A stretch of DNA of 64,000 nt from Gammaproteobacteria bacterium. Its GTDB lineage: Bacteria > Pseudomonadota > Gammaproteobacteria > Steroidobacterales > Rariloculaceae. Every line of letters begins with the position of its first letter. The stretch's first letter is position 1. The translations under genes were made by a program, and so were the position numbers. The stretch lies in contig DATBLZ010000040.1 in the NCBI GenBank assembly GCA_036555065.1, positions 119 to 64,118 on the forward strand, in the 5' to 3' direction. Below are positions 15,194 through 53,305 of the stretch, piece by piece. The notes beneath the pieces were generated by a model. That model ran no database searches. It had not been told where the DNA came from and worked only from the letters and a program-made list of their open reading frames with translations.

Positions 15194-15227
15194 GCAACGC
15201 TGCCGCCGCCGCGGTATTCTTGCCTGC

Positions 15228-15569: not shown

Positions 15570-15622
15570 ACTCGACCTGTTCTAACTTACTGTCGGTACA
15601 AAAGAAATCGCGCTACGGCCGG

Positions 15623-15690: not shown

Positions 15691-15702
15691 GGCGGCCCGC
15701 TT

Positions 15703-16158: not shown

Positions 16159-16178
16159 CGCGTAGCGAGGGAAGGGCG

Positions 16179-20585: not shown

Positions 20586-21956
20586 GTGATGACGCGGAGC
20601 ATGGCTTCGGTGGCGCTCGCGGTCGACGGCCGGTTAACGGGCCGCGACGCCGCCTTCGGCGCCGTGACGACGGACACGCGCGCGCTTAGGCATGGTGCCC
20701 TGTTCGTCGCGATCCGCGGCGAGCGTTTCGACGGCAACGATTTCATCGCCGAGGCGCATGCGAAAGGCGCGGCCGGCGCGCTCGTTTCGCGGCTCGCGCA
20801 ATCGGCGCTGCCGCAAGTCGAGGTCGCCGATACGCGCCGCGCGTTCGGCGTCATGGCGCGCGCGTGGCGGCGCAATTTCGCCGTTCCCGTCGTCGCCGTC
20901 ACGGGCAGCGCGGGGAAGACGACGGTCAAGCAGCTCATCGCCGAGATCCTCGGCGTGCGCAGGCGCGTCTGCGTCACGCAAGGGAATCTCAACAACGATA
21001 TCGGCGTGCCGCTGACGCTCATGCGCCTGACGGCCGAGGATGCCGCGCTCGTCGTCGAGCTCGGCGCCAACCATGCTGGCGAGATCGCGTATCTAGCGAG
21101 TCTCGTCGAGCCTACGGTCGGCGTCGTTACGAACGCGGGGCCGGCTCATCTCGAGGGGTTCGGCTCGCTCGCGGGCGTTGCGGCGGCAAAAGGCGAGCTC
21201 TTCGATCACCTGCCGCGCGCAGGCACGTCCGTGATCAATGCCGATGATCCGTTCTGCGTCGAGTGGCGCACGCGCACGCGCACGGAGTTCGTCGCGACTT
21301 TCGGCCTCAGCGCCGATGCGGATTGCCGCGTGATCGGCGCGCCGCGGCTCGAGGCCTTACAAACGAGGTTCACCCTGCGGCTGCCGGACGGCGAGACCGT
21401 CGACGTGGTTCTGCCGCTGCTCGGCCTCAAGAACGTCGTCAACGCACTCGCCGCAGCTGCAGCCGCGCACGCCGTCGGTGCCTCTGCCGAGGACGTTCGC
21501 ATTGGGCTTGCGCGCGCCGAAGCCGTGCGTGGGCGGCTGAATGCGCTCGCCGGCATCGCCCGCTCGACGGTCATCGACGACAGCTACAACGCGAACCCCG
21601 CGTCCGTGCGCGCCGCGCTCGATTACCTCGGGCGGCTCCCCGGACGGCGCATCTTCGTCCTCGGCGATATGGCCGAGCTTGGGCCCGAAGCCGCCGAGCT
21701 CCATCGCGAGATCGGCGCGTACGCGCGGTCGCGCTGCGATGCGTTATTCAGCATCGGCGCGCTCGCGCGCCATGCCGCGAGCACTTACGGAGCGGGCGCA
21801 CGGAGCTTCGCGGACTTGAGTCAGCTCGAAACGGCGCTCAAGCCCGAGCTCGACGCCGAGGTCACGGTGCTCGTGAAAGGCTCGCGCGTCATGGGCCTCG
21901 AGCGGCTCGTGCGCGCGCTCGTGCCGCCGCCGACTAAGGGTGGCGCAGCATGCTGA
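20586..21956 (+). CDS. murF: UDP-N-acetylmuramoyl-tripeptide--D-alanyl-D-alanine ligase MurF
   Basis: 456-aa ORF (GTG 20586 or ATG 20589) with [11 protein letters not shown] and DDSYNANP motifs. Confidence 0.95.
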
Positions 21957-23038
21957 TGCTGCTCACCGAGTACCTGACCGACGTCTACTCGGGCTTCAAC
22001 GTATTCAGCTACCTCACGATGCGGGCGATTCTCGCGGCGCTCACGGCGCTCGTGCTCTCGTTCGCCGCGGGGCCCTACGTCATTCAGAAGCTCACGATCC
22101 GACGCGTCGGCCAGTCCGTGCGCGACGATGGGCCCAAGACCCATCTGCCCAAAGCCGGGACGCCGACGATGGGCGGCGCGCTGATCTTGCTCGCAATCAC
22201 GATCAGCACGGTCCTCTGGGGGGACCTCTACAACCGCTTCGTCTGGATCGTGCTCGGCGTCACACTCGTGTTCGGCGCGATCGGCTTCGTCGACGACTAC
22301 AAGAAGCTCGTGCTCCGCGACTCGAAGGGCCTGAGCCCGAGGGTCAAGCTCTTCTGGCAATCGATTGCGGGCGTCGCGGCCGCGATCGTGATGTACACGA
22401 CTGCGGACAATCCGCAAGTCGAGCACGCGCTCCTGATTCCGTATTTCAAGGATCTCTCGATCGCGCTCGGCGTGATCGCCTACGTCGTCATCACTTACCT
22501 CGTCATCGTCGGTTTCTCGAATGCCGTCAACCTGACCGACGGTCTCGACGGCCTCGCGATCATGCCTGCGGTCATGGTCGGGGGTGCGCTCGGCCTCATC
22601 TCATGGGCAGCGGGCAACGTCGTTTTCTCCACTTATCTCGACATCCCCTACGTCGCGGGAGCGGGCGAGATGCTGGTTTTCTGTGCGGCCCTGGCTGGCG
22701 CCGGCTTGGGCTTCTTGTGGTTCAACACCTATCCTGCACAAGTCTTCATGGGCGACATCGGCGCGCTTGCGCTCGGTGCCGCCTTGGGGCTCGTCGCGGT
22801 GGTGGCGCGGCAAGAACTGGTCCTACTCGTCATGGGCGGAGTATTCGTCGTCGAAACCGTCTCAGTCGTAATCCAGGTTGCCTCGTACAAGATGACAGGC
22901 CGGCGCGTTTTTCGTATGGCACCGCTGCACCATCACTTCGAGCTCAAGGGTTGGGCCGAGCCCAAAGTGATCGTTCGTTTTTGGATCATCACAGTTATCC
23001 TCGTGCTCGTCGGGCTCGCGAGCCTGAAGATCCGCTGA
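21950..23038 (+). CDS. mraY: Phospho-N-acetylmuramoyl-pentapeptide transferase MraY
   Basis: 362-aa polytopic ORF with Kx[20 protein letters not shown] and [10 protein letters not shown] motifs. Confidence 0.97.
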
Positions 23039-24426
23039 TGGCAGCTTGGCAACGGCATTGGGAGGAGAGCTCGGGAGAAGCGCATTCAGTGGCAGAGAAT
23101 AGTGCCCCGCGGACGCTGATCGTCGGGCTCGGCGCGACGGGCCTCGCCGTCGCGCGGCATTTGCTCGCGCGCGGCGTACAGGTGCGCATCATCGACAGTC
23201 GCGCCGCGCCTCCCGCCCTGCAGGAGCTGAGGCTAACCGCTCCGGAGGCCGACGTCGTTCTCGAAACCCTCGATCCACGGTGGCTCGAAGGCATCGCGCG
23301 CGTCGTGTTGTCGCCGGGGCTTACGAGCGACATCCCGCTCATTGCCGCCGCCCGCGCTCGCGGTATTCCCGTCGACAGTGAGATCGAGGTCTTTGCGCAA
23401 GCGGCTCAGGCACCGGTGATCGCCGTCACGGGATCGAACGGCAAGAGCACGGTCACGACGCTGACGGCCGAGATCTTGACTCAGCAAGGTTTCAAAGCGC
23501 CGCGCGGAGGCAACTTGGGACCGCCGGCGCTCGACCTCTTGGCGGCGGGCGACGTCGACGCCTATGTGCTCGAGATCTCGAGCTTTCAAATGGAGACGAC
23601 GCGGAGCTTGCGCCCGCTCTCAGCCGCCGTGCTCAACGTGACGCCGGACCACCTCGATCGACACGGGAGCCTCGAGCATTACGCGGCGCTCAAGGCTGCC
23701 GTAATCGCCGGAGCCGCGACCGCCGTCGTCAACTGGGACGATCCGTTGACTCGCGCGATGGGCAAGCAGCTCGCGCATGCCGTGCCGTTCTCGGTGCGCG
23801 AGCCGCTCGCCAAAGGCTACTCCGTCGTCATGCACGCCGGCGCGCGTTGGCTCGCGCGTGATCGCAACCCGCTGATCCGCTCGAGCGAGCTCGCGCTCAC
23901 GGGCCGGCTCGGCGAGGCCAACTCGCTCGCGGCGCTCGCGCTCAGCGCCGCTCTCGACGGCGCAAGGGAGCCAGCGCTTAAGGCGCTGCGCACCTTCGTA
24001 GGTCTGCCGCACCGCTGCCAGAAGGTCAGAGAGCTGAACGGCGTCGTTTACGTCAATGACTCGAAAGGCACGAACGTCGGCGCGACCGTCGCGGCACTCG
24101 AGGGCATCGCCGGTCCCGTCGTCTTGATCGCGGGAGGCTTGAGCAAAGGCGCGAGCTTCGGCGCGCTCGCGGCGCTCCCGCGCGCGCGGCTGCGCGCGGC
24201 CGTGCTCATCGGCGCGGCGGCTCGGGAGCTCGAGACGGCGCTTGCGAACGTCTGTCCGACGCTGCGTGCGGCGAGTCTGCCCGAGGCCGTTGCGCGTGCC
24301 GCCGCCGCGGCCGTTCCCGGCGACACCGTGCTTTTGTCGCCGGCGTGCGCGAGCCAGGACATGTTCAAGGACTATCGCGAGCGCGGCGACGTCTTTACAC
24401 GCGCGGTGCTGGAGATGAACCGATGA
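23038..24426 (+). CDS. murD: UDP-N-acetylmuramoylalanine--D-glutamate ligase MurD
   Basis: Start MAAWQRHW at 23038 (TGATG junction with mraY). Motifs GLGATGLA and VTGSNGKSTV. Confidence 0.95.
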   Translation: MAAWQRHWEESSGEAHSVAENSAPRTLIVGLGATGLAVARHLLARGVQVRIIDSRAAPPALQELRLTAPEADVVLETLDPRWLEGIARVVLSPGLTSDIPLIAAARARGIPVDSEIEVFAQAAQAPVIAVTGSNGKSTVTTLTAEILTQQGFKAPRGGNLGPPALDLLAAGDVDAYVLEISSFQMETTRSLRPLSAAVLNVTPDHLDRHGSLEHYAALKAAVIAGAATAVVNWDDPLTRAMGKQLAHAVPFSVREPLAKGYSVVMHAGARWLARDRNPLIRSSELALTGRLGEANSLAALALSAALDGAREPALKALRTFVGLPHRCQKVRELNGVVYVNDSKGTNVGATVAALEGIAGPVVLIAGGLSKGASFGALAALPRARLRAAVLIGAAARELETALANVCPTLRAASLPEAVARAAAAAVPGDTVLLSPACASQDMFKDYRERGDVFTRAVLEMNR

Positions 24427-38700: not shown

Positions 38701-40914
38701 ATGAGCGTTAGACTGCATTCGATTGTCGCCCTCGCTGCGCTGACGATCATGGCCGGCACGGAAGTCGGTTTCGCGCAATCGTCGCCGACAGTGCCACAGA
38801 TCGTCCGCGATCGCATCGCATCCTCCGGGCGAACGCGCGTCATCGTCGAGCTTGCGGCGACGAGCCTTGCGCCGGACGGGCGCCGGTCGGCCGAGCAGAT
38901 GCGCCGGCAACGGACGGAAATCGCCGCGCAACGCAGCCGCCTGCGCGCGCGGCTCGGACAAGGCGCCCATCGCTTCGTTCACGAATTCGCGAATGTGCCG
39001 TTCGTCGCACTCGAGATCGACGCGTCCTCGCTTGCCGAATTGGAAGCCGCAGGATCACCCGCGGTCCGGGTTTTCGAGGATCGGCTCTTGGCGCCGACGC
39101 TGGCTCAGAGCGTCCCACTCATAGAGGCAGATCTCGCGCATCAAATCGGGCTCAACGGTAGCGGCAACGTCGTCGCGGTCGTGGATTCGGGCGTGGACCG
39201 GACGCATCCGTTTCTCGCGCCGCGCGTGGTCGCAGAAGCTTGCTTTGCGAGTGCCGAATCCGGCGACGGCGGCGATTGCCCGAACGGGCAAGCCACGGAG
39301 ATCGGTCCCGGCGCGGCCGAGAGTTGCGCGTTCGCGCCCTTGGCCTGCGGTCATGGAACCCACGTCGCCGGCATTGCCGCGGGGTCGGGACCCGAGTTTT
39401 CCGGCGTCGCCCCGAACGCGAGCCTCATCGCCGTGCAGGTTTTTCATGCATCCATGCAGTGCTTCTTCTTGCTCGAGGAGTTTCCCTGCCCACGCGCGTA
39501 CGAGAGCGACATCGTCGCCGGCTTGGAATACGTGATGAGCCTGCGCAACCAATTCAACATCGCCGCGGTCAACATGAGCCTTGGGGGAACGGCATACGAC
39601 AGCGCCTGCGATGCTGAAAGCCCGCTCTTCTCAGCCATCATCAACAATCTGAAATCGGTCGGCATCGCGACGATCGCGGCATCGGGCAACGATGGGCTCA
39701 CGGACGGCATCGCCGAACCCGCATGCATCGCCGCGGCGATCAGCGTCGGCGCCACGACCGACGATGACGAAGTCGCGTGGTTTTCGAACGCGTCAGCGGA
39801 CCTCGATCTGCTCGCGCCGGGAACCGGCATCAACTCATCGATGCCGGGCGGAGGTTTCGAGGAGCTCGACGGGACTTCGATGGCTGCGCCACACGTCGCC
39901 GGCGCGTGGGCGATATACAAGCAAGCCCATCCGGGCGCAACCGTCGACGAGGCGCTCGCGAGCTTCGTGAGCACCGGTACGCCGATCGCCGACTCGCGCG
40001 GCGGACCGACCAAGCCGCGGATCCGGGTCGGTGCTGCCGTCGGCATCGAGTCGCCCGTGCCGGTGATCGACTCGATCTCGCCGTCGACGGTGAACGCGTT
40101 TGCATCGGCCTTCACGCTGCGCGTCAACGGCAGCGGATTCATCGGCTCGTCCAAAGTCAGCTTGAACGGCCAGCCGCAGCGTACGACCTTCGTCAATGAC
40201 ACGACGTTGACCGTGACGATCGCGAGCGGGCAGCTTCCCGCGTCCGCAGCCGCAGTTACGGTCGCGGTGTCGACGCCTCCGCCCGGCGGCGGAACGTCGA
40301 ACGCCGCGACACTCAACGTCGTCGTCCCGGCGCTTGAGGTGAGTTCGACGATGGTCGATGCGGGCGATCCCGTCACGTTGACCCTCGTCGACGCGCCCGG
40401 CGGGGCAGAAGACTGGGTCGCGGTCTCGGCGGTCGGCAGCGCGAATACGAGCTACGTGACGTTCGTTGCTTTCGCGAACGCGCCGTCGGGGAGTTGGACG
40501 GTCAACATGCCGCAGACGCCCGGGACCTACGAGTTCCGGCTGTACCTGGACTATGGCTATGGCATCGCGGCCGTGAGCGCGCCGGTGGTGGTGGCGGCCA
40601 CCGAGCCTGAGCCTGAGCCTGAGCCCGAGCCTGCGCCGGTGGCGACGCTGACGGTGAGCACGACGACCGTTGCACCGGGTGCGCCGGTGACGGTGGCGCT
40701 CGCGAATGCGCCGGGCAACCCGACGGACTGGCTGGGGGTCTCGGCGGTCGGCAGCGCGAATACGAGCTACGTGGCGTTCGTTGCCTTCGCGAATGTGGCG
40801 TCGGGGAGTTGGACGGTCAACATGCCGCAGACGCCCGGGACCTACGAGTTCCGGCTGTACCTGGACTATGGCTATGGCATCGCGGCCGTGAGCGCGCCCG
40901 TGGTAGTCCAGTGA
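38701..40914 (+). CDS. Secreted subtilisin-like (S8) serine protease with prodomain, IPT/TIG-like domain and two tandem C-terminal beta-rich domains
   Basis: 737-aa ORF with a signal peptide. Catalytic Asp (VAVVDSGVD), His (HGTHVAGIAAG) and Ser (GTSMAAPHVAGA). An IPT-like segment (ISPSTVNAF...LTVTIASGQL), then a approximately 95-aa domain present twice, separated by a (EP)5 linker. Confidence 0.9.
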   Translation: MSVRLHSIVALAALTIMAGTEVGFAQSSPTVPQIVRDRIASSGRTRVIVELAATSLAPDGRRSAEQMRRQRTEIAAQRSRLRARLGQGAHRFVHEFANVPFVALEIDASSLAELEAAGSPAVRVFEDRLLAPTLAQSVPLIEADLAHQIGLNGSGNVVAVVDSGVDRTHPFLAPRVVAEACFASAESGDGGDCPNGQATEIGPGAAESCAFAPLACGHGTHVAGIAAGSGPEFSGVAPNASLIAVQVFHASMQCFFLLEEFPCPRAYESDIVAGLEYVMSLRNQFNIAAVNMSLGGTAYDSACDAESPLFSAIINNLKSVGIATIAASGNDGLTDGIAEPACIAAAISVGATTDDDEVAWFSNASADLDLLAPGTGINSSMPGGGFEELDGTSMAAPHVAGAWAIYKQAHPGATVDEALASFVSTGTPIADSRGGPTKPRIRVGAAVGIESPVPVIDSISPSTVNAFASAFTLRVNGSGFIGSSKVSLNGQPQRTTFVNDTTLTVTIASGQLPASAAAVTVAVSTPPPGGGTSNAATLNVVVPALEVSSTMVDAGDPVTLTLVDAPGGAEDWVAVSAVGSANTSYVTFVAFANAPSGSWTVNMPQTPGTYEFRLYLDYGYGIAAVSAPVVVAATEPEPEPEPEPAPVATLTVSTTTVAPGAPVTVALANAPGNPTDWLGVSAVGSANTSYVAFVAFANVASGSWTVNMPQTPGTYEFRLYLDYGYGIAAVSAPVVVQ
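40423..40583 (+). repeat. Copy 1 of a 161-bp near-identical intragenic direct repeat in the S8 protease gene
   Basis: GTCTCGGCGGTCGGCAGCGCGAATACGAGCTACGTG...GGCATCGCGGCCGTGAGCGCGCC recurs 315 bp downstream with only about 4 substitutions. Confidence 0.95.
40738..40898 (+). repeat. Copy 2 of the 161-bp intragenic direct repeat
   Basis: Same sequence as 40423-40583, offset by exactly 315 bp (105 codons). Confidence 0.95.
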
Positions 40915-41720: not shown

Positions 41721-42347
41721 CTATTCTGCGCGACCTCGCGGGCTCGGGCAATCGCGCGCGTGCTCGAGGTAGCGTGAATGCAAGTCGGCGACCTGTGCAC
41801 GCGTGTGCGCGAGCGTGCCGCTGTTGTCGATGACATCGTCGGCAGCTTCGAGGCGAGCGGCGCGGTCGAGCTGCGCCGACACCACGGATTCGGCGCGCCG
41901 CCGGCTCAACGCATCGCGCCGCATCACGCGCTCGAGCTGCATCTCCCGCGGACAGTCGACGACCAAGACTCGGTCGACGAGAGTCGCGAAGTCGGTCTCG
42001 AGCAACAGCGGCACGACGACGATCGCATAGGGCGCTTTCTCGATCGCGGCCAGGCGGGCGAGGGTCGCGGTGCGGATCAGCGGATGGAGGATCGCTTCGA
42101 GCCGAGCGCGCGCGCCGCTGTCCGCGAAGACGACGTCGCGGATCTTCGCGCGGTCGAGGCTGCCGTCGGGGGCGAGAATTTCCGGGCCGAAGGCCGCGCG
42201 CACCGCCCGAAGACCCGCGGTGCGGGGAGCCACGACCTCACGAGCCAACAAGTCCGTGTCCACGATCGGCACGCCCAAGGCCGCGAACATCTCGGCGACC
42301 TGCGACTTACCGCTCGCAATGCCGCCCGTGAGCCCGACGCGGAGCAC
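41721..42347 (-). CDS. coaE: Dephospho-CoA kinase CoaE
   Basis: GTG start at 42347 gives VLRVGLTGGIASGKSQV (P-loop). The remainder of the 280-aa ORF overlaps pilD and is not conserved. Confidence 0.9.
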   Translation of the reverse strand: MLRVGLTGGIASGKSQVAEMFAALGVPIVDTDLLAREVVAPRTAGLRAVRAAFGPEILAPDGSLDRAKIRDVVFADSGARARLEAILHPLIRTATLARLAAIEKAPYAIVVVPLLLETDFATLVDRVLVVDCPREMQLERVMRRDALSRRRAESVVSAQLDRAARLEAADDVIDNSGTLAHTRAQVADLHSRYLEHARDCPSPRGRAE

Positions 42348-42361
42348 GTATGACCCGCTTT

Positions 42362-43243
42362 TTAGGACAGGAACTGCGCGTACCACGCGCTGAGATCGCG
42401 GCCCCAAAGAAGCGCGATCCACGCGGCCGCGGCGAGGTAGGGTCCGAACGGGATCGCCGCATGCCGCGAGCGACCGCCGAGAACGATGAGGCCGATGCCG
42501 ATGATCGAGCCCACGGCAGCCGACAAAAGAATCACGACCGGCAACACTTGCCAGCCGAGCCATGCCCCGGCGGCTGCGAGCAGCTTGAAATCTCCGTAGC
42601 CCATGCCCTCCTTACCGGTTGCGAGCTTGAAGAGTTGATAGACGCTCCAGAGACTGAGATACCCTGCGGCAGCGCCGAGCACGCTCGAGCGCAAGTCCGT
42701 GAAAAGCGGGGCACCGTCGACCTCGATGAGGCTCAACAGGAGACCGGCCCACAAGAGCGGCAACGTGATGGAATCGGGCAGGAGCTGCGTGTCGAGGTCG
42801 ATGAGCGCGAGCGCAAGCAGCGTCCACGTGAACCCCAAGGCCGCTACGGTCAACCACGTAGGGCCGAATTCGTAAGCCACGATGACGCCGAGTGCCGCGG
42901 CGAGACCTTCGACGATCGGGTAGCGTTTCGAGACCGGTGCCGCGCAAGCGGCGCAGCGCCCCTTGAGCCATAAGTAGCTCAGAACCGGAATGTTGTGCCG
43001 GGCTGCGATCGGGGCGCCGCACTTCGGGCAGGCCGAACGCGGCCAGACGAGGTCGTAGCGCGCTTCTGCCGGCACTGGCGAGACGAGCGGCTCGCTGGGA
43101 TGGCTTTCGAGCTCGCGCCGCCAGGCTCGCTCCATCATGATCGGCAAGCGATAGGCGACGACGTTGAGAAAGCTGCCCACGCAGAGCCCGGCCAAGCCAC
43201 AGACGACGAAGAGCGCCGCGGGCCAGAGCTCGAAGATCTCCAC
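42362..43243 (-). CDS. pilD: Prepilin leader peptidase / N-methyltransferase PilD
   Basis: 293-aa polytopic ORF with the cysteine cluster CPKCGAPI...CAAC and the aspartyl-protease motif GMGYGDFKLLAA. Confidence 0.95.
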   Translation of the reverse strand: MEIFELWPAALFVVCGLAGLCVGSFLNVVAYRLPIMMERAWRRELESHPSEPLVSPVPAEARYDLVWPRSACPKCGAPIAARHNIPVLSYLWLKGRCAACAAPVSKRYPIVEGLAAALGVIVAYEFGPTWLTVAALGFTWTLLALALIDLDTQLLPDSITLPLLWAGLLLSLIEVDGAPLFTDLRSSVLGAAAGYLSLWSVYQLFKLATGKEGMGYGDFKLLAAAGAWLGWQVLPVVILLSAAVGSIIGIGLIVLGGRSRHAAIPFGPYLAAAAWIALLWGRDLSAWYAQFLS

Positions 43244-44509: not shown

Positions 44510-46231
44510 CTATTCAATGGTAACTCGGTTGATTTCTTCGAGACTCGTAACCCCGTCCTTGACTTTCTTGAGCGCCGAGGTTCGCAGATCCGCGACTCCG
44601 TCGCGCTTGGCTTGGTCGGCGATCTGGATGGCGTTGCCGCCCTCCATGATGATGCGCCCGAGCGTCTCGGTGACGGGCATGACCTGATAGATGCCGACGC
44701 GGCCCTTGTAGCCGCCGTTGCATTGTGCGCACCCCTTCGGGTGATACACCGTGACGCCTTCCTTGATATCGCCAGGCGTGAAGCCTTCCTTGAGCAGGGC
44801 TTCCTTCGGCACTTCGATGGCCTCTTTGCAGTTCTCGCAGAGGCGCCGTGCAAGGCGCTGCGCAATGATGAGGCTCACCGAGCTCGCAATCGCATAGGGC
44901 TTAACACCCATGTCGACGAGCCGCGTCAGGGTCTTCGGCGCATCGTTCGTGTGCAGCGTCGACAGCACGAGGTGGCCGGTCTGCGCGGCTTTGATCGCGA
45001 TCTCGGCGGTCTCGAGGTCGCGTATCTCGCCGACCATGATGACATCGGGGTCCTGGCGCAAGAACGCGCGCAGCGCCGCCGCGAACGTGAGCCCAACCTT
45101 CGGGTTCACGTTGACTTGGTTGATGCCGGGCACGTTGATTTCGCATGGATCCTCGGCCGTCGAGATGTTGCGATCGGCCGTGTTGAGGATGTTGAGCCCC
45201 GTGTAGAGCGACACCGTCTTACCGCTGCCCGTAGGGCCCGTGACGAGGATCATGCCGTAGGGCTTGTCGAGCGTGTCCAAGTAAAGCTTCTTTTGATACT
45301 CCTCGTACCCGAGCGCGTCGATGCCGAGCTGGGCACTCGAAGGATCGAGCAAGCGGCAAACGACCTTCTCGCCATAAAGCGTCGGGCACGTGTTGACGCG
45401 GAAATCGATCGCGCGGTTCTTCGACAGGCGCATTTTGATGCGTCCGTCCTGCGGAACTCGCCGCTCGGCGATGTCGAGACGCGCCATGACTTTGAGGCGC
45501 GCCGCGAGTTTCATCGCGAGAGCCACGGGGGGCTTCGCGAACTCCGTCAAGACGCCGTCCTGGCGAAACCGGATGCGGAAGACCTTCTCGTACGGCTCGA
45601 AATGGATGTCCGATGCGCCGCGCTTGATCGCGTCGACCATGACCTTGTTGACGAAGCGCACGACCGGTGCGTCCTCGACGTCGGCATTCGTAACCTCGGG
45701 GCCGATCTCGTCGTCTCCGGCGGAGACCTCGAGATTGTCCATGTCGAAATCTTCGGCCGACATGCTCGCCATCGACGTGTCGACGGCCTCGATCGCGCGC
45801 GCGACTCGAGCCTCGAGCTTGTTGTGCTCGACGACGATCGGCTCGACGCGCAGCGTCGTCGCGAATTTGATCTCGTCGAGGGCCTGGAGGTTCGTCGGGT
45901 CGCAGACGCCGACGTAGAGGCGCTTGCCGCGCTGGAGCAGCGGCAGCACGCGATGCTTCGTTAGCAGCTTGTCGTCGACGAGCTTGACGACGTCGAGGTC
46001 GAGCTCGACGGCATCCAGGTCGAGCAGGGGCACGCCGAACTCGTGGGCGGCGGCCACGGCGATTTGGCGCGCGTCGGCGAGCTGATTGGAAACCAGATAT
46101 GGAACGAGGTTTGCGGCTTTGCCGTCGATCGATTCTAGGGCGCGGCCCAAGGCATCCTCGGAAAGAATGCCGTCTTGAACCAGCCGCCGAGGCAGTCCAG
46201 TCAGGGGACCTTGGGTTGCAGTCGCAGCCAT
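44510..46231 (-). CDS. pilB: Type IV pilus assembly ATPase PilB
   Basis: 573-aa ORF with Walker A GPTGSGKT, an Asp box, Walker B, a His box and the tetracysteine motif CENC...CAQC. Confidence 0.96.
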   Translation of the reverse strand: MAATATQGPLTGLPRRLVQDGILSEDALGRALESIDGKAANLVPYLVSNQLADARQIAVAAAHEFGVPLLDLDAVELDLDVVKLVDDKLLTKHRVLPLLQRGKRLYVGVCDPTNLQALDEIKFATTLRVEPIVVEHNKLEARVARAIEAVDTSMASMSAEDFDMDNLEVSAGDDEIGPEVTNADVEDAPVVRFVNKVMVDAIKRGASDIHFEPYEKVFRIRFRQDGVLTEFAKPPVALAMKLAARLKVMARLDIAERRVPQDGRIKMRLSKNRAIDFRVNTCPTLYGEKVVCRLLDPSSAQLGIDALGYEEYQKKLYLDTLDKPYGMILVTGPTGSGKTVSLYTGLNILNTADRNISTAEDPCEINVPGINQVNVNPKVGLTFAAALRAFLRQDPDVIMVGEIRDLETAEIAIKAAQTGHLVLSTLHTNDAPKTLTRLVDMGVKPYAIASSVSLIIAQRLARRLCENCKEAIEVPKEALLKEGFTPGDIKEGVTVYHPKGCAQCNGGYKGRVGIYQVMPVTETLGRIIMEGGNAIQIADQAKRDGVADLRTSALKKVKDGVTSLEEINRVTIE

Positions 46232-46362: not shown

Positions 46363-46398
46363 GAAAGAAAAAGGCCCTGTCGCAGGTGCGACAGGGCC
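46363..46398 (-). terminator. Rho-independent terminator downstream of pilA
   Basis: On the minus strand: GGCCCTGTCGC-ACCT-GCGACAGGGCC (11-bp perfect stem, 46373-46398), followed by TTTTTCTTTC. It begins about 30 nt after the pilA stop. Confidence 0.85.
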
Positions 46399-46427: not shown

Positions 46428-46922
46428 CTACGGGCGGCAGTTCGCCGGCAAATACTTGCCCAAAACGTTCGTGACACCGGCCGGCGCCGCAGCCGTGGGG
46501 ATGCCCCCCTGCTGGAGAGCGACACCGGCGGGGACGGCGGCCGTGCCGCAGACCCACACGACGTCGAGATTCGGGCTCACGTAGGGCTGCATGGCCAACG
46601 TTTTGGTGGCAACTGCAGCGTTGGCTTGGTTGCCGTACGTGACCGTGATAGTCCCCGTGCCCACTACGACGCCAGTGACGTACTTGCCAGAAACCACGCC
46701 CGTGATGCCCATGGCGGCGTTGTCAGCGGGCCAGAAACCCCGCTGCGCGAAGGTCTCGGCGACGCCGGCTTTGAGGGCGCCGACCAACGTCAGACCTTCA
46801 GACACCTGCGAGCGGACGGTGTAGTCCTGATACGCCGGGATCGCGATCGCGGCGAGAATGCCGATGATGGCTACCACGATCATCAACTCGATGAGCGTGA
46901 AGCCGCGTTGAATTTTCTTCAT
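46428..46922 (-). CDS. pilA: Type IVa major pilin PilA
   Basis: 164-aa ORF with the class III signal MKKIQRG|[27 protein letters not shown] and a C-terminal disulfide pair (C126...C162). Confidence 0.93.
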
Positions 46923-46995
46923 CCTAGGAACTCCTCAATGTTTACCCAAACACACACAAAAAAGCGCGACCAGCAGCTGGTCTAGGCATGGGGAG

Positions 46996-47011
46996 TGCAA
47001 TCCCTGTGCCA
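46996..47011 (-). promoter_or_regulatory. Sigma-54 (-24/-12) promoter of pilA
   Basis: The minus strand reads TGGCAC-AGGGA-TTGCA, a perfect match to TGGCAC-N5-TTGCW, about 74 nt upstream of the pilA ATG. rpoN and the enhancer-binding protein gene pilR are in the same window. Confidence 0.85.
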
Positions 47012-47150: not shown

Positions 47151-50100
47151 TCAAGGCGTGCCCGGGTGCCGCGCCTGGGCGCCGCGGGCCAGCGTCAAGA
47201 TGAGCTCGAGCTCGGGCGTCGTCTCGAACGCGCCGACGGTCGCAGTGCGGTTTTCCCATAGCTCGAGTGCTTTGTCGGGGCGACCGCTCGAGTAGTGGCC
47301 GAGCATGGCTGCGGTCAGGGCATACCGGCGGCGCGCCGGCTCCGACGTGCGATCGAACTCGAGGACGCTCTCAGCGGCCGCGGCCATGCGCAGGGCGTCG
47401 CGCGCGGCTACGGCCCGATAGAGCGCGAACCACACGAGCGCGAGCGCGGAACGTTGCGTTCTGCAGCGCAGCGGCAGCACGGCATCGAGCAGCGCAGTCG
47501 CGGCATCGGCGTCCAAGCGCGCGAGCGTCGACTGGGCGAGGCTCTCGAGCCCGAGCAGCCACGCCTCCTCCGCTGCCGGCGACTCGCAAAACCGGCTCAA
47601 GAGCTCGAGTGCAGTAATTGTCGGCCCGACGGACTTGGCGGCCGACCCAAGCGTGGCTTCGTCGCCGCCCGCGAGCACCGTCTGAATCGAGCGCGCGAGC
47701 GCAATGCTCATCGTGCGCTCGAAAGTCGGGTCGGGCGTGACCTTCCCGAGATCGAACGTGCTTACGCCGACCATTTCGAGCGCCGGCAACGAAGCGACGC
47801 TCCACTCGACGAACAGCGTCGCGACCTGTTGTTGAAACCGCGCTTTGCCCGCATTCAAGTCCAAGAACGGGAAGTAATCCGAATTCACTGGAACCGCCGA
47901 TTGCGCGAGCCAAGGCTTGAGCATCTCGGCAGTGCCGGTCTTGCGAACTAGAAAATCTTCGGCCGCGTGCAGCCCGACGCGCGCCGTCTCCACCCCGAGC
48001 GCGCCGCTCAATACTGTTTCGAACGACGGCTCACCGAGCGTTCCAAACGGCTTTGCGACGATGAGGATATTGATGTCGTCGGTGTTGTAGATGACATAGT
48101 CGCTGAAGTTTCGCGACAGCGCGCGGAGCACGGACAGAACGAGATCGTCGTTGAACTCGTAGAGCTGCAGCCACTGCACGAGGATTCCATCCTCGTTCAA
48201 GTAGTTGGGCACCGTGCGATAGAACTCGTCGGAGAAGAGGCTTGCAACACCGGATACCCAAGGATTCGACGGCTCCGCGACGATGGCGTCGTACTTGTGA
48301 TTCTGGAGCGAGAAGAAGGTCTTCGCGTCCTCGAGATGAATGACGCTGCGCGGATCACTGTAGGTGCGCTCGACGCGCTCTCCGAACCCCTGTGCCGCCT
48401 CGATCATGGCGGCCTCGATCTCGATGGTATCGACCCGGTCGAGGCGGTCGTGCGCGAGCAATGTGTGCGTCGTCAGCCCCGACCCCAAGCCGATATTGGC
48501 TATTTCCCGCGCTGCGGGGTTGTAGGCGAGCGGCAACGTCGCGGCCATGACCATTGTGATCTCGTCGGTCGCGCTCGGCTGCGCGGGGTCCATCTGGATG
48601 GACGCATCGGGTTTGCCGTTGGTCGCGAGAGTGATCTGCGAGCCGTACGCAAAGAGACTCACGCTTGCGGTCTTGCCGTCCTTGTAATAGAGGACGCGTG
48701 CGTCGCCCCTGTCGGCGCGTCCGTAACGGTAGACGCCCGAGGCCAAGCGCTTCGGCTCGAGATCGACGCCAGTGACGACGAGAGCAATGGCTGCCAAGCC
48801 GACGAGGGCGCCGCGGAGCGCGGAGCTCGGGACGCGGCGTTCCTGGCTCCGAGAGAGCAGCACTATCCCGAGCGCGATATCGAGCGCCGCACCGAGCCCG
48901 ATCAAATACTTCAAGCCGAGCAGCGGCATGCCGATGTGGACGGCGAACAGCACGCCGGCGATGGCGCCGAGCGTATTAGCGGCATAAATTCGTCCGATCG
49001 CCTGCTCGCCGTGCCGGCCGCGCAGCAGCACGTACGTGAACAACGGCAGCGTCATGCCTGCCAAGAAGGTCGTCGGAACCATGATCGCGAGCGCGATGCC
49101 GTGACTCGCTGCGGTGAATAGGTTATAGCCGACGTCGGTGCGTTGTAGCCCAGCGACGAGTGCCGCCATCCAATCGAACGTCTGCACGTAGAGGGGCACG
49201 GTCAGAATCGCCATCGCGCCCATGAGGACCTGCACCCACCCCGCGAAGGCGACAGGATCGCCGATCCCGTCGATGCGCCGCTTGATCCAGAGGCCGCCGA
49301 GCGCCAATCCAGTGATGAACGCGCTCAACATGAGCTCGAACGAGTGGGTCGTGGCGCCGAGGACGAGGCTCAGCATGCGGATCCAGCCGATCTCGTAAAT
49401 GAACGACGCCGCACCCGTGATGCCCGCGGCTGCGAAAAAGAGAATCGCGAGCGCGCCGTCGGAGGTCATGGCGCCCGACCCCGACGCTCTGGCGGGCGGG
49501 GCTTCAGCGGCCGGATCGAGCCGCACGAGCACGAACACGACAAGGGCGAGTGCGATATTGAGCAGGCCCGCCGTCATGATCGCTCCCGGCAGACCGACCA
49601 CACCGACGAGCCAGAATCCGCTCACGAGCACGCCGATCGCGGCGCCGACGCTATTCGTGAAATAGAGCATCGAAAGCGTTTCGCCCGGGTGCTGCGGATA
49701 GCGGCGAATGATTCCCGTCGTCATCAAGGGAAATGTCATGCCGAGGAGCACGGACTGGGGGACGATCAAGGCCGCCGCGGCGGTCCATTTGAGGAATCCC
49801 GCGAGCACGGGCGCCTCGAGCGAGGGCAGCAGCGAGAAATAGAAGGCGTCGGAAAGCGATACGAACGTTGCGTGAAACAGGAGCGCAATGACACCGATGA
49901 CGCCCTCGACGAGCGCGTAGACGAGAATCGGCAGACGGAAGCGCTCGGAGAATCTCGCGGACAACCAGGACCCGAGCGCGAGGCCGCCCATGAAAATGAT
50001 GAGCACGAGCGATTGCGCGTACGCGGCGTGGCCGAGGAAGAGCTTGAGGTAGTGGGACCAGATCGACTCGTATATGAGCCCCGAGAAGCCTGAAATCGTG

Positions 50101-50180
50101 AAGATCGCGTAGAAGACCCACTTCGGCGGGGCACTCTCGAGCTTGATCCCTACACCGGTCGCGTCCGTCGGTCCGTTCAT
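47151..50180 (-). CDS. Fused polytopic membrane domain / spermidine-synthase-like (class I MTase fold) / helical C-terminal domain protein
   Basis: 1009-aa ORF. The N-terminal approximately 480 aa form many hydrophobic helices. The central region IANIGLGSGLTTHTLL...IEIEAAMIEAA...YDAIVAEPSNPWVSGVASLFSDEFY...GILVQW is colinear with the SpeE fold. The C-terminal approximately 250 aa are Ala/Leu-rich and helical. Confidence 0.85.
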   Translation of the reverse strand: MNGPTDATGVGIKLESAPPKWVFYAIFTISGFSGLIYESIWSHYLKLFLGHAAYAQSLVLIIFMGGLALGSWLSARFSERFRLPILVYALVEGVIGVIALLFHATFVSLSDAFYFSLLPSLEAPVLAGFLKWTAAAALIVPQSVLLGMTFPLMTTGIIRRYPQHPGETLSMLYFTNSVGAAIGVLVSGFWLVGVVGLPGAIMTAGLLNIALALVVFVLVRLDPAAEAPPARASGSGAMTSDGALAILFFAAAGITGAASFIYEIGWIRMLSLVLGATTHSFELMLSAFITGLALGGLWIKRRIDGIGDPVAFAGWVQVLMGAMAILTVPLYVQTFDWMAALVAGLQRTDVGYNLFTAASHGIALAIMVPTTFLAGMTLPLFTYVLLRGRHGEQAIGRIYAANTLGAIAGVLFAVHIGMPLLGLKYLIGLGAALDIALGIVLLSRSQERRVPSSALRGALVGLAAIALVVTGVDLEPKRLASGVYRYGRADRGDARVLYYKDGKTASVSLFAYGSQITLATNGKPDASIQMDPAQPSATDEITMVMAATLPLAYNPAAREIANIGLGSGLTTHTLLAHDRLDRVDTIEIEAAMIEAAQGFGERVERTYSDPRSVIHLEDAKTFFSLQNHKYDAIVAEPSNPWVSGVASLFSDEFYRTVPNYLNEDGILVQWLQLYEFNDDLVLSVLRALSRNFSDYVIYNTDDINILIVAKPFGTLGEPSFETVLSGALGVETARVGLHAAEDFLVRKTGTAEMLKPWLAQSAVPVNSDYFPFLDLNAGKARFQQQVATLFVEWSVASLPALEMVGVSTFDLGKVTPDPTFERTMSIALARSIQTVLAGGDEATLGSAAKSVGPTITALELLSRFCESPAAEEAWLLGLESLAQSTLARLDADAATALLDAVLPLRCRTQRSALALVWFALYRAVAARDALRMAAAAESVLEFDRTSEPARRRYALTAAMLGHYSSGRPDKALELWENRTATVGAFETTPELELILTLARGAQARHPGTP

Positions 50181-50302: not shown

Positions 50303-51634
50303 CTAGGACTCGATCTCGAGCTTCTTGATGCGGTAACGCAGCGCGCGAAAGCTGATGCCGAGGAGCTTCGCGGCCGCGGTCTTGTTGTAGCGCGTTTGCT
50401 CGAGCGCTTTGACGATCGCATCCCGCTCGATGTGCTCGAGCTGCGACCCGAGCGTGCCTTCGCCCTCCAAGGCCTGGGCTTCGTCCTCGTCGGGGGCGGA
50501 CCTGAGCTGCAAGTCGTCGACGTCGATCTCGTTGTCGGCGCAAAGGGTCAGCGCGCGTTCGAGGACGTTCTCGAGCTCGCGGACATTGCCCGGGAACCGA
50601 TAGCTCAAGAGAGCATCCTGCGCGGCCCGCGTGAGGCTCGGCTCGGACACGCCGAGCGTCGTGGCCAGGCGAGCGAGCACGTGGTGGGCGAGCAGCAAAA
50701 CGTCGTCGCCGCGGTCGCGCAACGGCGGAACATTAACTTCGATGACGTTGATGCGGTAATAAAGGTCCTCGCGGAAGCGGCCTTCGGCGACGAGCTCGGC
50801 GAGCGCCTTGTGGGTCGCGCTCAGGATGCGGGCGTCGATCGGATACTCTACCGTCTGTCCCACGGGGCGGATCGCCTTTTCCTGAATCACACGCAGCAGC
50901 TTGACCTGCATGTGCAAGGGCAGATCGGCGACTTCGTCGAGAAATAGAGTGCCGCCTTCCGCGGTCTGCACGAGACCGACTTTATCGGCGACTGCGCCCG
51001 TGAAGCTGCCTTTCTTGTGGCCGAAGAACTCGCTTTCCATGAGCTCGGTGGGAATCGCGCCGCAGTTGATCGCGACAAAGGGACCGTCACGTCGCGGGCC
51101 CGCCTCGTGGATCATGCGCGCGACGAGCTCTTTGCCGGTGCCCGACTCTCCGGAGATATGCACGGGAGCCTGGCTTCTTGCGACCTTCGCGATCAGCGTG
51201 CGCACCTGTTCGATTGCCGCGGAGTGGCCGACGAGACCTTGGCTCGTTGCCGCACGCGCCGGCGTAATGCCTTTGAGCTTGAGCGCGGCCGTGACGAGCT
51301 TGCGTAGGTCGTTGAGATCCAGCGGCTTCGAGACGAAGTCGAATGCGCCGAGCTTGAGCGCTCGAACCGCAGCCTCGACGCTACCGTGCGCCGTAATGAC
51401 CGCGACGGGTGTGCCGGGCGCCTTCGATTGAATCCAATCAACGAGCTCGAGACCGTCGCCGTCCGGCAACCGCATGTCGGTAAGACAAAGATCGTAGTCG
51501 TCCTTGCCGAGCGCCTGCTTTGCGCTCGTGAGATCCGGACAGATGCGCGCGCTCACGTCCATGCGCTCGAGGGTAATGGACAAGAGCTCCCGAATATCGG
51601 GCTCGTCGTCGACGACCAATGCGATCGGCTTCAT
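50303..51634 (-). CDS. pilR: Sigma-54-dependent response regulator PilR
   Basis: 443-aa ORF with a receiver domain (DLCLTDMRLPDGDG), an AAA+ domain (GESGTGKE, GAFTGA-like GSFTGA) and a C-terminal Fis-type HTH. Adjacent to pilS and near the sigma-54 pilA promoter. Confidence 0.93.
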   Translation of the reverse strand: MKPIALVVDDEPDIRELLSITLERMDVSARICPDLTSAKQALGKDDYDLCLTDMRLPDGDGLELVDWIQSKAPGTPVAVITAHGSVEAAVRALKLGAFDFVSKPLDLNDLRKLVTAALKLKGITPARAATSQGLVGHSAAIEQVRTLIAKVARSQAPVHISGESGTGKELVARMIHEAGPRRDGPFVAINCGAIPTELMESEFFGHKKGSFTGAVADKVGLVQTAEGGTLFLDEVADLPLHMQVKLLRVIQEKAIRPVGQTVEYPIDARILSATHKALAELVAEGRFREDLYYRINVIEVNVPPLRDRGDDVLLLAHHVLARLATTLGVSEPSLTRAAQDALLSYRFPGNVRELENVLERALTLCADNEIDVDDLQLRSAPDEDEAQALEGEGTLGSQLEHIERDAIVKALEQTRYNKTAAAKLLGISFRALRYRIKKLEIES

Positions 51635-51640
51635 CGCGCC

Positions 51641-53305
51641 TTATTCACTGAGCTGCCAGCGCTTGAGGTCGGAAAATACGATGCGAAAGAGACTACCGCC
51701 ATCGGGGCGCGCGTGGTAGCGCAGCGTCGCGCCATTCCGCTCGCAGAGCTCGCGCGAGATGTAGAGCCCGAGACCCGTGCCGCCCGGCTGTCCAGTGTAG
51801 AACGGCTCGAATATTTGCTCGGTCCTGTCGGCGGGAATGCCCGGGCCGCGATCGGCGACTTCGAGGTAAGGTCGGCGCGAAGCGTCGAGGCGGCCGCAGT
51901 TGATCTCGACGGCGATTGCTCCCGCGGCCTTGCTTGCGTACTTGACCGCGTTGTCGCAGAGATTCCAGACGATTTGGTGAAGGTGCGTTCGGTCCATCTC
52001 GACCTCGAGCTCCTCGGTGTCCACGTTGACGCTGAGCGCAGCCTCGTAGAGCTCCTGCGTCTGCGTGAACTCCTTTGCAAAATCTCTTGCCCAGGCGCAC
52101 AGACGCACCCTCTGCGGATGCGTCTTGTCGCGCTTCGAGAGTGCGAGCACGCTTTCGACGATTTGGCTCACGCGCCGGGAATTAACGCGGATGATGTCTG
52201 TGAGCCGCCGCTCGGCCGGTGCGATCGACGGCGACTCGGCGAGCAATTGTCCCGCATGGCTCAGCGCGCCGAGAGGATTGCGAATCTCGTGGGCAATGCT
52301 CGCGCTCAAGCGCCCGAGCGCCGCGAGCTTCGTCTGTTGCACGCGCTCGGCGATCAAGGACATATCTTCGAGGAAGACGACGACTCCGTCGTTTCGGCCG
52401 GAGCCGAGCGCCGCAAAATGCGGCGCGATGCCCGGGCCCATATCCTTGCCGTCCATGACGATCGTGGTCCCGCCGAGATCGTCGCCGAAGGCGCGCCAGC
52501 GTTGTAGCCGCTCGGCGAGCGGCCCGGATAAGCTCGCGAGCTCGGCGCCGCTCGTCGGCAGCGCCCCAAGCAGCTTGCCTGCCGACTCGTTGATGAGTCT
52601 CACGCGGTCGTTCGCGTCGACGACGACGATGCTCTCGCGCAAGTGCTGAATGATGTAGTCATTGAGCTCCTCGAGATTCTGCAGATCGACTCCGCGCTGC
52701 TCGGCGAGTGCCTCCGTCTCGACGATGCGGCGGCGCAAGAGCTGCACCACGCCCGTAATCACGAAAATCACGGCGCCGAGAATGCCGGTCTGCGCATACT
52801 CGGCTGTCCCCGTGATGCCCTGGAGTTGAGCGAACGTTTGCTCGGCCAAGAGCGCAAACGTCGCGAAGGAGGCAAAAAGGAACGCGCGGTCCGCGGGTAG
52901 CAGCAGCGCGAGGCCGCCAATCGAAACGATGAGGAGGCCCCCGAGGCCGCTGTCGACGCCGCCGCTCGAGTGAACGAGCGTGACGACGGCGAGCACGTCG
53001 ATGCCCCCTTGCGCGAAGACGTGGACCGATCTTGAGAGCTTGCGGCTGCGTAGCAACCAGGCTTCGATGACCCCGAATGCGAGCAATCCGTATAGCACGA
53101 GATGCGCAAGGCGCGGATCGGTATCCCCGATGATGCGCGGATCGGTGATCAAGAACACGAACGCCAGAAACGTGGCCGCGAGCGCGAGCCTGAAGAGATT
53201 CAGGAGCACGAGCACACGCCAAGCGAACTCGTCTGCGGACGCGCCCTGGCCGGGCAGCGCGTGCGAAATAACGCTCGGCGTCTCGGGCGCGGCAGCGATC
53301 GACAT
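51641..53305 (-). CDS. pilS: Sensor histidine kinase PilS
   Basis: 554-aa ORF with about 6 N-terminal TM helices, a PAS-like linker, an H-box SIAHEIRNPL, and N and G boxes (DNAVKY, DRGPGI, GTGLGL). Lies 6 nt upstream of pilR. Confidence 0.88.
   Translation of the reverse strand: MSIAAAPETPSVISHALPGQGASADEFAWRVLVLLNLFRLALAATFLAFVFLITDPRIIGDTDPRLAHLVLYGLLAFGVIEAWLLRSRKLSRSVHVFAQGGIDVLAVVTLVHSSGGVDSGLGGLLIVSIGGLALLLPADRAFLFASFATFALLAEQTFAQLQGITGTAEYAQTGILGAVIFVITGVVQLLRRRIVETEALAEQRGVDLQNLEELNDYIIQHLRESIVVVDANDRVRLINESAGKLLGALPTSGAELASLSGPLAERLQRWRAFGDDLGGTTIVMDGKDMGPGIAPHFAALGSGRNDGVVVFLEDMSLIAERVQQTKLAALGRLSASIAHEIRNPLGALSHAGQLLAESPSIAPAERRLTDIIRVNSRRVSQIVESVLALSKRDKTHPQRVRLCAWARDFAKEFTQTQELYEAALSVNVDTEELEVEMDRTHLHQIVWNLCDNAVKYASKAAGAIAVEINCGRLDASRRPYLEVADRGPGIPADRTEQIFEPFYTGQPGGTGLGLYISRELCERNGATLRYHARPDGGSLFRIVFSDLKRWQLSE

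Follow-up and report, generated by a model that had tools for sequence, protein, structure and literature searches.

The scaffold of spermidine synthase (SpeE) has been turned into a methyltransferase dependent on S-adenosylmethionine (SAM) in plant putrescine N-methyltransferase and in the C-terminal domain of METTL13, and enzymes of the nicotianamine synthase type carry out aminocarboxypropyl transfer on a related scaffold. Spermidine synthases require Asp or Glu in the loop GxG(D/E)G for binding decarboxylated SAM (dcSAM), and the fungal methyltransferase NHMT has Ile there (PMC10349129). NHMT (AN4663) consists of a domain of seven transmembrane (TM) helices, reported to be unique to filamentous fungi and needed for activity, and a domain like that of spermidine synthase (SpdS-like), in which a conserved Glu, E340, is required for co-substrate binding; it methylates the N-terminal His of secreted proteins, the lytic polysaccharide monooxygenases (PMC10349129). 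Here we describe a bacterial gene that encodes a polytopic membrane domain fused to a SpeE-like domain and a helical tail, 1009 amino acids (aa) in all. It lies on a stretch of 64,000 nucleotides (contig DATBLZ010000040.1, positions 119 to 64,118; the window, for short) from a gammaproteobacterium of the Rariloculaceae, in the midst of the genes for type IV pili. Sequence, predicted structure and genomic context make the fused protein a promising candidate for a pilus-linked modifying enzyme of a kind not yet described.

The fused protein is like NHMT, an enzyme of secreted substrates, in placing a polytopic membrane domain ahead of the SpdS-like domain. With both NHMT and the C-terminal domain of METTL13 it shares a SpdS-like domain of seven beta-strands in which the acid of GxG(D/E)G is replaced, here by S567. 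E587 of the fused protein may act like E340 of NHMT, the two being equivalent by fold position only. As far as a comparison by description goes, the proteins differ in their membrane parts, seven TM helices in NHMT against a fold of 12+1 helices of the major facilitator superfamily (MFS) here, and in the sequence of motif IV.

The fused protein also belongs to a family that already has a label. It passes the cut-off of the NCBIfam model NF037959, 'fused MFS/spermidine synthase' (68.2 bits against 40), the only model passed, and like the members of that family it has an MFS-type membrane domain N-terminal to the SpeE-like domain. PRK03612 (NF002956), the 7-TM 'polyamine aminopropyltransferase', aligns to residues 245-668, which comprise the second half of the MFS domain, the thirteenth helix (TM13) and the SpeE-like domain. 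The conserved TM motifs YExxW...G...GLAxG are a further trait in common. What sets the present protein apart from both NF037959 and PRK03612 is that the two MFS halves are in one chain (6+6+1 TM) with one SpeE-like domain, the sequence SEPSNPW and a tail with a Cys pair. In the literature searched, no published function was found for NF037959 or PRK03612, and nothing on the function of the fused family or a link of it to pili; the Lysobacter papers treat canonical SpeE and SpeD. An earlier sequence-only reading of the window had likewise held that the family has no assigned function. The family label NF037959 was known, but the literature searched describes neither the probable activity nor an outward-facing topology nor a linkage to pili.

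The SpeE-like domain

The middle part of the fused protein has the fold of SpeE throughout. The only Pfam match of the protein is to PF01564 (Spermine_synth; residues 545-696, E = 1.2e-17), and it passes the cut-off. When the full-length AlphaFold2 model (65-sequence alignment; predicted local distance difference test, pLDDT, 88.9; predicted template-modelling score 0.88) was compared by Foldseek with the Protein Data Bank (PDB), the top 50 matches were all spermidine, spermine or thermospermine synthases (template-modelling score on the target 0.58-0.72). These alignments span 223-302 columns and so include the N-terminal beta domain that is specific to SpeE. Searches by phmmer and by profile with the SpeE-like domain found, among solved structures, SpeE only; METTL13 was not retrieved among the PDB profile matches of the family at E <= 1. 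Compared with SpeE (PF01564; 1inl, E. coli 3o4f and human 2o06), the domain has in common the whole fold including the N-terminal beta domain, the GxGxG loop, an acid at the end of beta-2 (E587) and the gate-loop pattern 'LF..EFY' after motif IV.

The differences from SpeE lie in the residues that make it an aminopropyltransferase. They were located by residue-level alignment to SpeE of T. maritima (1inl), and their conservation was counted in 140 representatives with 38-51% identity to the query. In the glycine loop, where SpeE has GGGDGG, the fused protein has IGLGSGL; G564, G566 and G568 are invariant, and position 567 is Ser in 122 relatives, Thr in 11, Ala in five and Cys in two, and never Asp or Glu. 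The Asp that in SpeE contacts the aminopropyl amine of dcSAM has thereby become Ser or Thr. In motif IV, DSTDP of 1inl aligns to EPSNP (636-640), so that the catalytic and putrescine-binding acids have changed from D..D to E..N, which is followed by an invariant Trp (E636 in 136/140, N639 in 139/140 and W641 in 140/140). The entire stretch SEPSNPW is invariant or nearly so. The Tyr of the 'YHE' motif of SpeE is not evident in the alignment on a cursory look.

Other positions speak for retention of a nucleotide pocket. E587 and E589 are invariant, and E587 aligns with the Glu of 'CEVD' in T. maritima SpeE, in the column that we take to be the ribose-binding acid of SpeE and of SAM enzymes. D618 and the adjoining A619 are also invariant (140/140). 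The column of D618 has Asn in 1inl, and our placing of it at the adenine-binding position after beta-3 is an assumption based on comparison with the SpeE fold and not on the 1inl alignment. E587 and D618 would then fill the ribose- and adenine-binding positions. The domain thus appears to keep candidate adenosyl-binding residues, while replacement has affected precisely the acids responsible for preferring dcSAM to SAM and for binding the diamine.

The sequence-only reading had noted the altered motifs, GLGSGL and EPSNP, and had considered classical spermidine synthesis unlikely on their account; the alignment to 1inl supports it on both. It had also called the motifs degenerate, which is not what we find. 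Across the 140 relatives the substituted set is nearly invariant, which speaks for an activity that has been conserved and against a relic. The view of the domain as degenerate or as a relic was dropped on that ground: a different, active-site-like set of residues has been fixed.

Could the protein nevertheless be a true membrane-bound synthase of spermidine or another polyamine, with a cytoplasmic catalytic domain coupled to an MFS exporter of the product? The source annotations, the SpeE fold and the PF01564 match above cut-off would fit such an enzyme. Against it, the Asp of GGGDG is Ser or Thr in 133 of the 140 relatives, and DSTDP has given way to EPSNP. Every SpeE equivalog model is missed, and by far (TIGR00417, 67.1 against a cut-off of 249.55; NF002010, 80.1 against 260; NF002956, 122.3 against 472). 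Topology and the pattern of the Cys pair, taken up below, favour a periplasmic location of the domain. We therefore consider a true synthase highly improbable and conclude that the SpeE-like domain is, by its sequence, very probably not a spermidine synthase.

Membrane domain, tail and topology

In the full-length model and in a separate model of residues 1-485 (pLDDT 86.6), the helical membrane region extends from about residue 20 to 471, with twelve long helices in 20-444 followed by a thirteenth. In Foldseek searches with the 1-485 model the top 50 matches were all MFS transporters, including OxlT, NorA, VMAT, FLVCR and PepT2, at probability 1.0 (template-modelling score on the target 0.36-0.75, mostly 0.5-0.75; identity 10-17%). 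The two halves of the domain are homologous, with 31% identity over 194 aa (BLASTP, E = 9e-15). The internal repeat, the helix map and the Foldseek matches together identify two homologous bundles of six helices, as in a 12-TM MFS protein. The fused protein resembles known transporters of this fold (OxlT 8hpj, NorA 7lo8, VMAT, FLVCR) in its 12 helices, its two 6-helix repeats and its K/R-rich even-numbered loops, and differs from them in the additional thirteenth helix and an outer domain of 540 aa.

Both halves carry the TM motif YExxW...G...GLAxG, and both contain conserved polar residues. In the N-terminal half Y37 is invariant among the 140 relatives, E38 is Glu in 120 and Gln in the others, and W41, Q56, E92 and N176 are further conserved positions. 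In the C-terminal half E263, W266, R268, E282, N402 and T403 are invariant, and Y262 is Tyr in 139/140. Several of the invariant polar residues are inside the MFS helices (Y37, W41, Q56, E92, N176, E263, R268, E282 and N402). The loop between TM2 and TM3 (aa 70-82, GSWLSARFSERFR) is rich in Lys and Arg and by eye resembles motif A of MFS proteins (G-x-x-x-D-R/K-x-G-R-R/K) in the stretch G-SWLSARFSERFR, with the Asp and the second Gly out of place.

The N- and C-termini of MFS proteins are both cytoplasmic. A hydrophobic thirteenth helix after a complete MFS fold with cytoplasmic termini would carry what follows it, the SpeE-like domain and the tail, to the periplasmic side. The distribution of charge agrees: averaged over the 140 relatives, the predicted inner loops carry 14.5 Lys and Arg and the predicted outer loops 2.7, and the basic residues are on the even-numbered loops in the window protein as well. 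This family-wide positive-inside bias and a conserved pair of Cys residues support the periplasmic placement. The two Cys, C865 and C906, are the only ones in the protein; C865 is kept in 119 of the 140 relatives, both are present in 117, and in 110 the C-terminal ~530 aa contain exactly two Cys. From such a conserved pattern a structural disulfide is expected, and C865-C906 is probably a single disulfide that stabilises the tail. On these grounds we consider it likely that residues 476-1009 face the periplasm.

The tail of about 300 aa is mainly helical in the model, its first ~50 residues being mixed alpha/beta. No Pfam match was found for it, or for two other tails of the family, even at E <= 10. 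The last ~150 aa resemble helical repeats of the tetratricopeptide (TPR) or pentatricopeptide (PPR) type, and residues 935-1002 have a weak profile match to a designer PPR protein (E = 0.014). The motif NSDYFP (766-771) is specific to the family and strongly conserved (N766 and S767 in 135, D768 in 136 and P771 in all of the 140). As a whole, the chain almost certainly consists of a 12-TM MFS fold built from two duplicated six-helix halves, then TM13, the SpeE fold in full and a tail that is mostly helical. The three parts are those that had been recognised from the sequence-only reading, which put the tail at about 250 aa; Pfam and the AlphaFold2 model extend it to about 300.

The homology of the two halves and the alignment of PRK03612 to the second half, TM13 and the SpeE-like domain together suggest that the 1000-aa architecture arose when the membrane half was duplicated. 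Were the reasoning on topology to hold for PRK03612 too, canonical membrane-bound SpeE proteins would be dimers of half-MFS subunits with their catalytic domains outward, which would be unexpected for an enzyme dependent on dcSAM.

Gene order and promoters in the window

The ORF (open reading frame) of the fused protein starts with ATG and encodes 1009 aa and a stop, as seen in the ORF list and its translation. On the minus strand the order is pilS-pilR-ORF-sigma-54 promoter-pilA-pilB-pilC-pilD, followed by coaE and zapD, with sucCD and nadE divergent from pilS. ORF list, Pfam and promoter scan confirm what the sequence-only reading had described, an ORF of 1009 aa set between pilS-pilR and the promoter of pilA-pilBCD. 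The GC content at third codon positions of the ORF (0.83) is like that of the flanking genes and so gives no sign of recent import.

The site TGGCACAGGGATTGC, about 75 nt upstream of the ATG of pilA, is the sole match without mismatch to the sigma-54 consensus in the 64-kb window. A perfect or one-mismatch sigma-54 site is also found upstream of the pilins of ten related loci. For the fused gene itself, the scan of the window and of 22 related loci showed no upstream sigma-54 promoter except two sites with two mismatches. The terminator scan of intergenic sequence found no terminator-like site in the 122-nt gap between pilR and the ORF. Shortly after the sigma-54 promoter, the 5' leader of pilA contains a small hairpin and then a T-run (46968-46982, minus strand), which may be an attenuator or may have arisen by chance.

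In Pseudomonas, pilin accessory genes are co-transcribed with pilA. The fused gene resembles those for TfpO/PilO, TfpW and TfpX/Y/Z in adjoining the major pilin gene and in encoding a polytopic protein of the inner membrane whose working domain is predicted to be periplasmic. Unlike them, it is not downstream of pilA: it is upstream, across pilA's own sigma-54 promoter, and a terminator follows pilA. Pfam gave no match of the fused protein to a Wzy_C/O-antigen-ligase, GT-C glycosyltransferase or TfpO/TfpW-type domain. The analogy with the slot next to pilA in Pseudomonas, on which the sequence-only reading had leaned, is therefore a loose one.

The gene order also bears on a non-catalytic role, in which the protein would be a co-sensor or regulator of PilS-PilR, with the periplasmic SpeE-like pocket binding a polyamine, an adenosyl compound or a segment of pilin. 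The MFS protein UhpC communicates with UhpB, and by analogy the 6-TM PilS would be the partner of the MFS-like domain. Throughout the gamma clade the gene shares its strand with pilSR and is their immediate neighbour, either upstream of pilS or downstream of pilR, with short gaps and no terminator, and the lack of a sigma-54 promoter of its own fits such a role too. However, in Betaproteobacteria and other clades the gene is paired with a pilin gene with no pilSR within 10 kb, and the near-invariant set of catalytic type (E636, N639, W641, E587 and D618) is more typical of an enzyme. We think a co-sensor quite unlikely.

Gene neighbourhoods of the homologues

The Pil proteins of the window were used to search 85 loci (L-numbers below), and in the first 81 of these ORFs were called and the neighbours clustered. 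Loci with at least 8 kb on both sides of the homologue were taken as well-flanked (n = 38). Type IV pilus genes are present in 15 of these 38, and in 12 of 34 without the hand-picked close relatives. The pilus-linked share, 35-39% of loci, is far above the 1-3% expected for a random gene, which is a rough, unmeasured estimate. In a neighbor-joining tree of the protein the pilus-linked cases belong to at least seven separate clades. The commonest neighbour families are type IV pilins (11 loci), a membrane+TPR protein of ~600 aa (11), PilR (9), PilB (9) and PilS (7). The enrichment near pilus genes that the sequence-only reading implied is thus seen, in an association that is not universal.

The arrangement varies with the clade. 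With X for the fused gene, the order pilS-pilR-X-sigma-54 promoter-pilA is found in the window, its closest relatives (86% and 75% identity) and L016. In a clade at ~62% identity the order is X-pilS-pilR-pilA-pilBCD. X is convergent with pilRS in L020, and in L025, L041 and L066 it lies between pilSR and pilBC with housekeeping genes interposed. In Burkholderiales (L011, L019, L021, L039) the order is X-sigma-54 promoter-pilin(-membrane/TPR), and in L043 and L058 it is pilin-(membrane/TPR)-X. In Methylococcales (L080) and Chromatiaceae (L063) a pilin is at most two genes from X. In all pilus-linked arrangements the pilin has a perfect or one-mismatch sigma-54 promoter and the fused gene has none. 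The pilin of the window aligns with those neighbouring the homologues. Taken with the points that weigh on the other side (see the next section), we lean slightly towards a real functional link to type IV pili.

The four Burkholderiales loci share a larger block, which over ~0-16 kb contains a CHASE2-adenylate/guanylate cyclase, a PilB-like ATPase (~42% identity to PilB), a GAF-HD-GYP protein, a TPR protein, the homologue, a sigma-54 promoter with its pilin, and the membrane+TPR protein. It has the look of a pilin module in its own right, rich in signalling proteins and remote from any pilSR.

Genes of modification enzymes are another recurrent element. The membrane+TPR family of 11 loci has a weak match to PMT_2 and is hence GT-C-like, and a 251-aa glycosyltransferase of family 2 (GT2) is present in L012, L029 and L050. 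Such neighbours suggest that the fused protein might be a component of periplasmic protein glycosylation from lipid-linked sugars. Some MFS proteins are lipid flippases, and here the substrate flipped by the MFS domain would be a lipid or be linked to polyprenyl phosphate, while the outer domains would aid the GT-C/TPR transferases. In L029 the gene has five membrane+TPR paralogues around it, which favours such a role. On the other hand, no GT-C/TPR or GT2 homologue is present in the window, and the closest relatives also lack such a neighbour. A role of this kind would also leave the conserved nucleotide pocket of SpeE type unexplained, and we regard it as very unlikely.

Several single loci deserve mention. 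In L029, a 3-Mb contig of an uncultured deltaproteobacterium, the five membrane+TPR paralogues and the 251-aa GT2 surround the homologue at 18-16825 with no pilin nearby, which suggests a protein-glycosylation island. In L083, three tandem pilins and, after them, two proteins of ~620 aa without Pfam match, a GT2 and a class-I methyltransferase are found downstream of X-pilS-pilR (16424-23087), and this region is probably an island of pilin variation or glycosylation. Beside the homologue, L063 has a TPR-sulfotransferase (12945-14747) and L081 a TPR-GT41 protein like O-GlcNAc transferase (13000-15426). Genes of the flavin amine-oxidoreductase family are beside the homologue in the pilin-linked loci L080 (12972-14537) and L081 (4896-6539).

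A lead from Geobacter was dropped, as membership of GSU2502 ('spermidine synthase') in the family was not confirmed. In G. sulfurreducens this gene has a cytochrome gene on one side and omcT/omcS on the other, and it shares their regulation in a gsu1771 mutant. The Geobacterales homologues L062, L064 and L067 have essentially no CxxCH-rich neighbours, save one small ORF with three such motifs ~9 kb away in L064.

Proposed activity

We tentatively propose, with somewhat less than even confidence, that the fused protein is an MFS-fed alkyl- or methyltransferase of the inner membrane that acts in the periplasm on pilin or another exported target, by analogy with fungal NHMT. The SpeE-derived domain would bind a donor of SAM type rather than dcSAM and would alkylate an amine of an exported substrate, the group transferred being methyl or a different alkyl such as 3-amino-3-carboxypropyl, with E636 in place of the catalytic base of SpeE. 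Passage of the donor through the membrane would be the task of the MFS domain, and the helical tail would hold the protein substrate. The target could be pilin, another component of the pilus or some other exported protein, because the gene recurs beside pilin genes and beside modification genes of periplasmic type (GT-C-like and TPR). Direct covalent modification of pilin is in our judgement rather doubtful. The version in which SAM or a related adenosyl donor is exported through the MFS domain and used by the tethered periplasmic transferase for covalent modification of type IV pilin or other exported proteins seems unlikely to us.

A number of points weigh against the proposal. The periplasmic orientation rests on prediction, and the flanks of TM13 alone do not discriminate between the two orientations. 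We know of no SAM-dependent chemistry in the bacterial periplasm and of no SAM transporter of the MFS family, which makes the supply of the donor a speculative step. PilD of the window has, by its translation, an N-terminal Cys-rich region (an A24_N_bact domain in close relatives), which we take to carry its methyltransferase function, so methylation of the pilin N-terminus already has an enzyme. As the fused gene lacks a sigma-54 promoter of its own, its sequence does not indicate direct control by PilR/RpoN. The pilins next to homologues have no special feature in common beyond ordinary type IVa traits. About 60% of the well-flanked loci have no pilus genes, and in a sister, Woeseiaceae-like clade (53-54% identity) the gene follows csrA/alaS/recA. 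In the Gammaproteobacteria, part of the association with pili may be inherited synteny, the genes being part of a sucCD-nadE-bamD-pil block.

Alternatively, the protein might work in the envelope or in relation to polyamines and have nothing to do with pili in particular, for instance by handling or modifying a small molecule, a lipid or an amine of the cell wall on the outer side of the inner membrane; the position among pil genes would then be a matter of inherited synteny. In accord with this, most loci are without pilus genes within 10 kb, the Woeseiaceae-like clade has the gene behind csrA/alaS/recA, many in Burkholderiales have housekeeping neighbours (aroC, aconitase and an MFS gene among the flanking genes), and the gamma clade is syntenic throughout (sucCD-nadE-bamD...pil...coaE-zapD). 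Yet the gene has shifted from upstream of pilS to the gap between pilR and pilA and has remained in the cluster, and adjacency to pilin recurs in unrelated Burkholderiales, Rhodocyclaceae, Methylococcales, Chromatiaceae and Steroidobacteraceae. Nor would synteny account for a pilus-linked share so far above the rough estimate for a random gene. We consider an envelope function of this kind fairly unlikely.

Distribution and significance of the family

The family is large. In a full HMMER pass over 1.84 billion representatives (50%-identity clusters), E <= 1e-3 was reached by 22,357 proteins and E <= 1e-30 by 6,832, and the best 150 matches are nearly all full-length, at ~950-1050 aa. At least 596 species have a homologue in a scan of one genome per species. 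The hosts are mostly uncultured Gamma- and Betaproteobacteria, Nitrospirota, Geobacterales and Myxococcota. In the sources the proteins are annotated as 'spermidine synthase', 'predicted membrane-bound spermidine synthase' or 'fused MFS/spermidine synthase', and a Pfam MFS_1 match is recorded for only some of them. A large family is thus routinely given a label that the sequence evidence contradicts.

Type IV pili take part in adhesion, motility, DNA uptake and phage susceptibility. If the proposed outward-facing, MFS-fed transferase is real, it would represent a new kind of periplasmic chemistry and, to our knowledge, the first SAM-dependent protein modification in the bacterial periplasm. 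It might reveal a new post-translational modification of pilin or a new input to pilus regulation. It would also provide a function for thousands of 'membrane-bound spermidine synthases', which could be the bacterial counterpart of fungal NHMT. Even if the link to pili fails, the corrected annotation and the topology of 'membrane-bound SpeE' proteins should be useful.

Features of the window

The coordinates of the fused gene, its parts and its surroundings are collected in Table 1. The genes pilC and pilD were named by size, position, translation and tblastn matches to related pil clusters, and their counterparts in close relatives carry T2SSF and Peptidase_A24 domains (Pfam). The names coaE and zapD are based on translations, tblastn to related loci and Pfam-annotated genes at equal positions in close relatives.

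Table 1. Positions in the window of the fused gene, its domains and motifs, and the neighbouring pil genes and signals.
Feature	Position	Residues	Strand	Description
pilS	51641..53305		-	Sensor kinase; Pfam PF25323 6TM_PilS + HisKA + HATPase_c
pilR	50303..51634		-	Sigma-54-dependent response regulator; Pfam Response_reg + Sigma54_activat + HTH_8
Whole ORF	47151..50180	1-1009	-	Fused MFS / SpeE-like / helical-tail protein
MFS N-terminal half, TM1-6	49521..50123	20-220	-	From model helices, Foldseek and residue counts
MFS C-terminal half, TM7-12	48849..49463	240-444	-	Duplicate of the first half
TM13	48768..48827	452-471	-	Hydropathy 2.06; confident helix in both models
SpeE-fold domain	48051..48713	490-710	-	Four-strand beta domain (495-529) + Rossmann/class-I methyltransferase core
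Glycine loop IGLGSGL	48474..48494	563-569	-	Aligned to GGGDGG of SpeE
E587	48420..48422	587	-	Acid at end of beta-2
D618	48327..48329	618	-	Followed by A619
EPSNPW	48258..48275	636-641	-	In place of SpeE catalytic D-[SC]-[ST]-D-P
Tail	47154..48050	711-1009	-	Mainly helical (model)
NSDYFP	47868..47885	766-771	-	Family-specific tail motif
C865	47586..47588	865	-	One of two Cys
C906	47463..47465	906	-	Second Cys; putative disulfide partner of C865
Sigma-54 promoter of pilA	46997..47011		-	TGGCACAGGGATTGC; between ORF and pilA
pilA	46428..46922		-	Type IVa major pilin; Pfam N_methyl + Pilin
Intrinsic terminator after pilA	46373..46398		-	11-bp stem with 9 GC pairs, then T-run; strong
pilB	44510..46231		-	Pfam T2SSE ATPase

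Two further observations concern genes beyond pilB. The longest ORF for coaE (41721-42563, minus strand) overlaps the 3' end of pilD (42362-43243, minus strand) by ~200 nt. Because CoaE has only 188-207 aa in relatives, the true start of coaE is probably well downstream of the listed ATG. At 38701-40914 on the plus strand the window encodes a subtilisin-like protease of 737 aa, of S8 type by its sequence motifs, and a Peptidase_S8 gene is at the same position in one close relative. A C-terminal segment of ~95 aa in this protease is duplicated in tandem; each copy ends with '...SGSWTVNMPQTPGTYEFRLYLDYGYGIAAVSAPVVV', and the two are joined by an (EP)n linker, EPEPEPEPEPAP.

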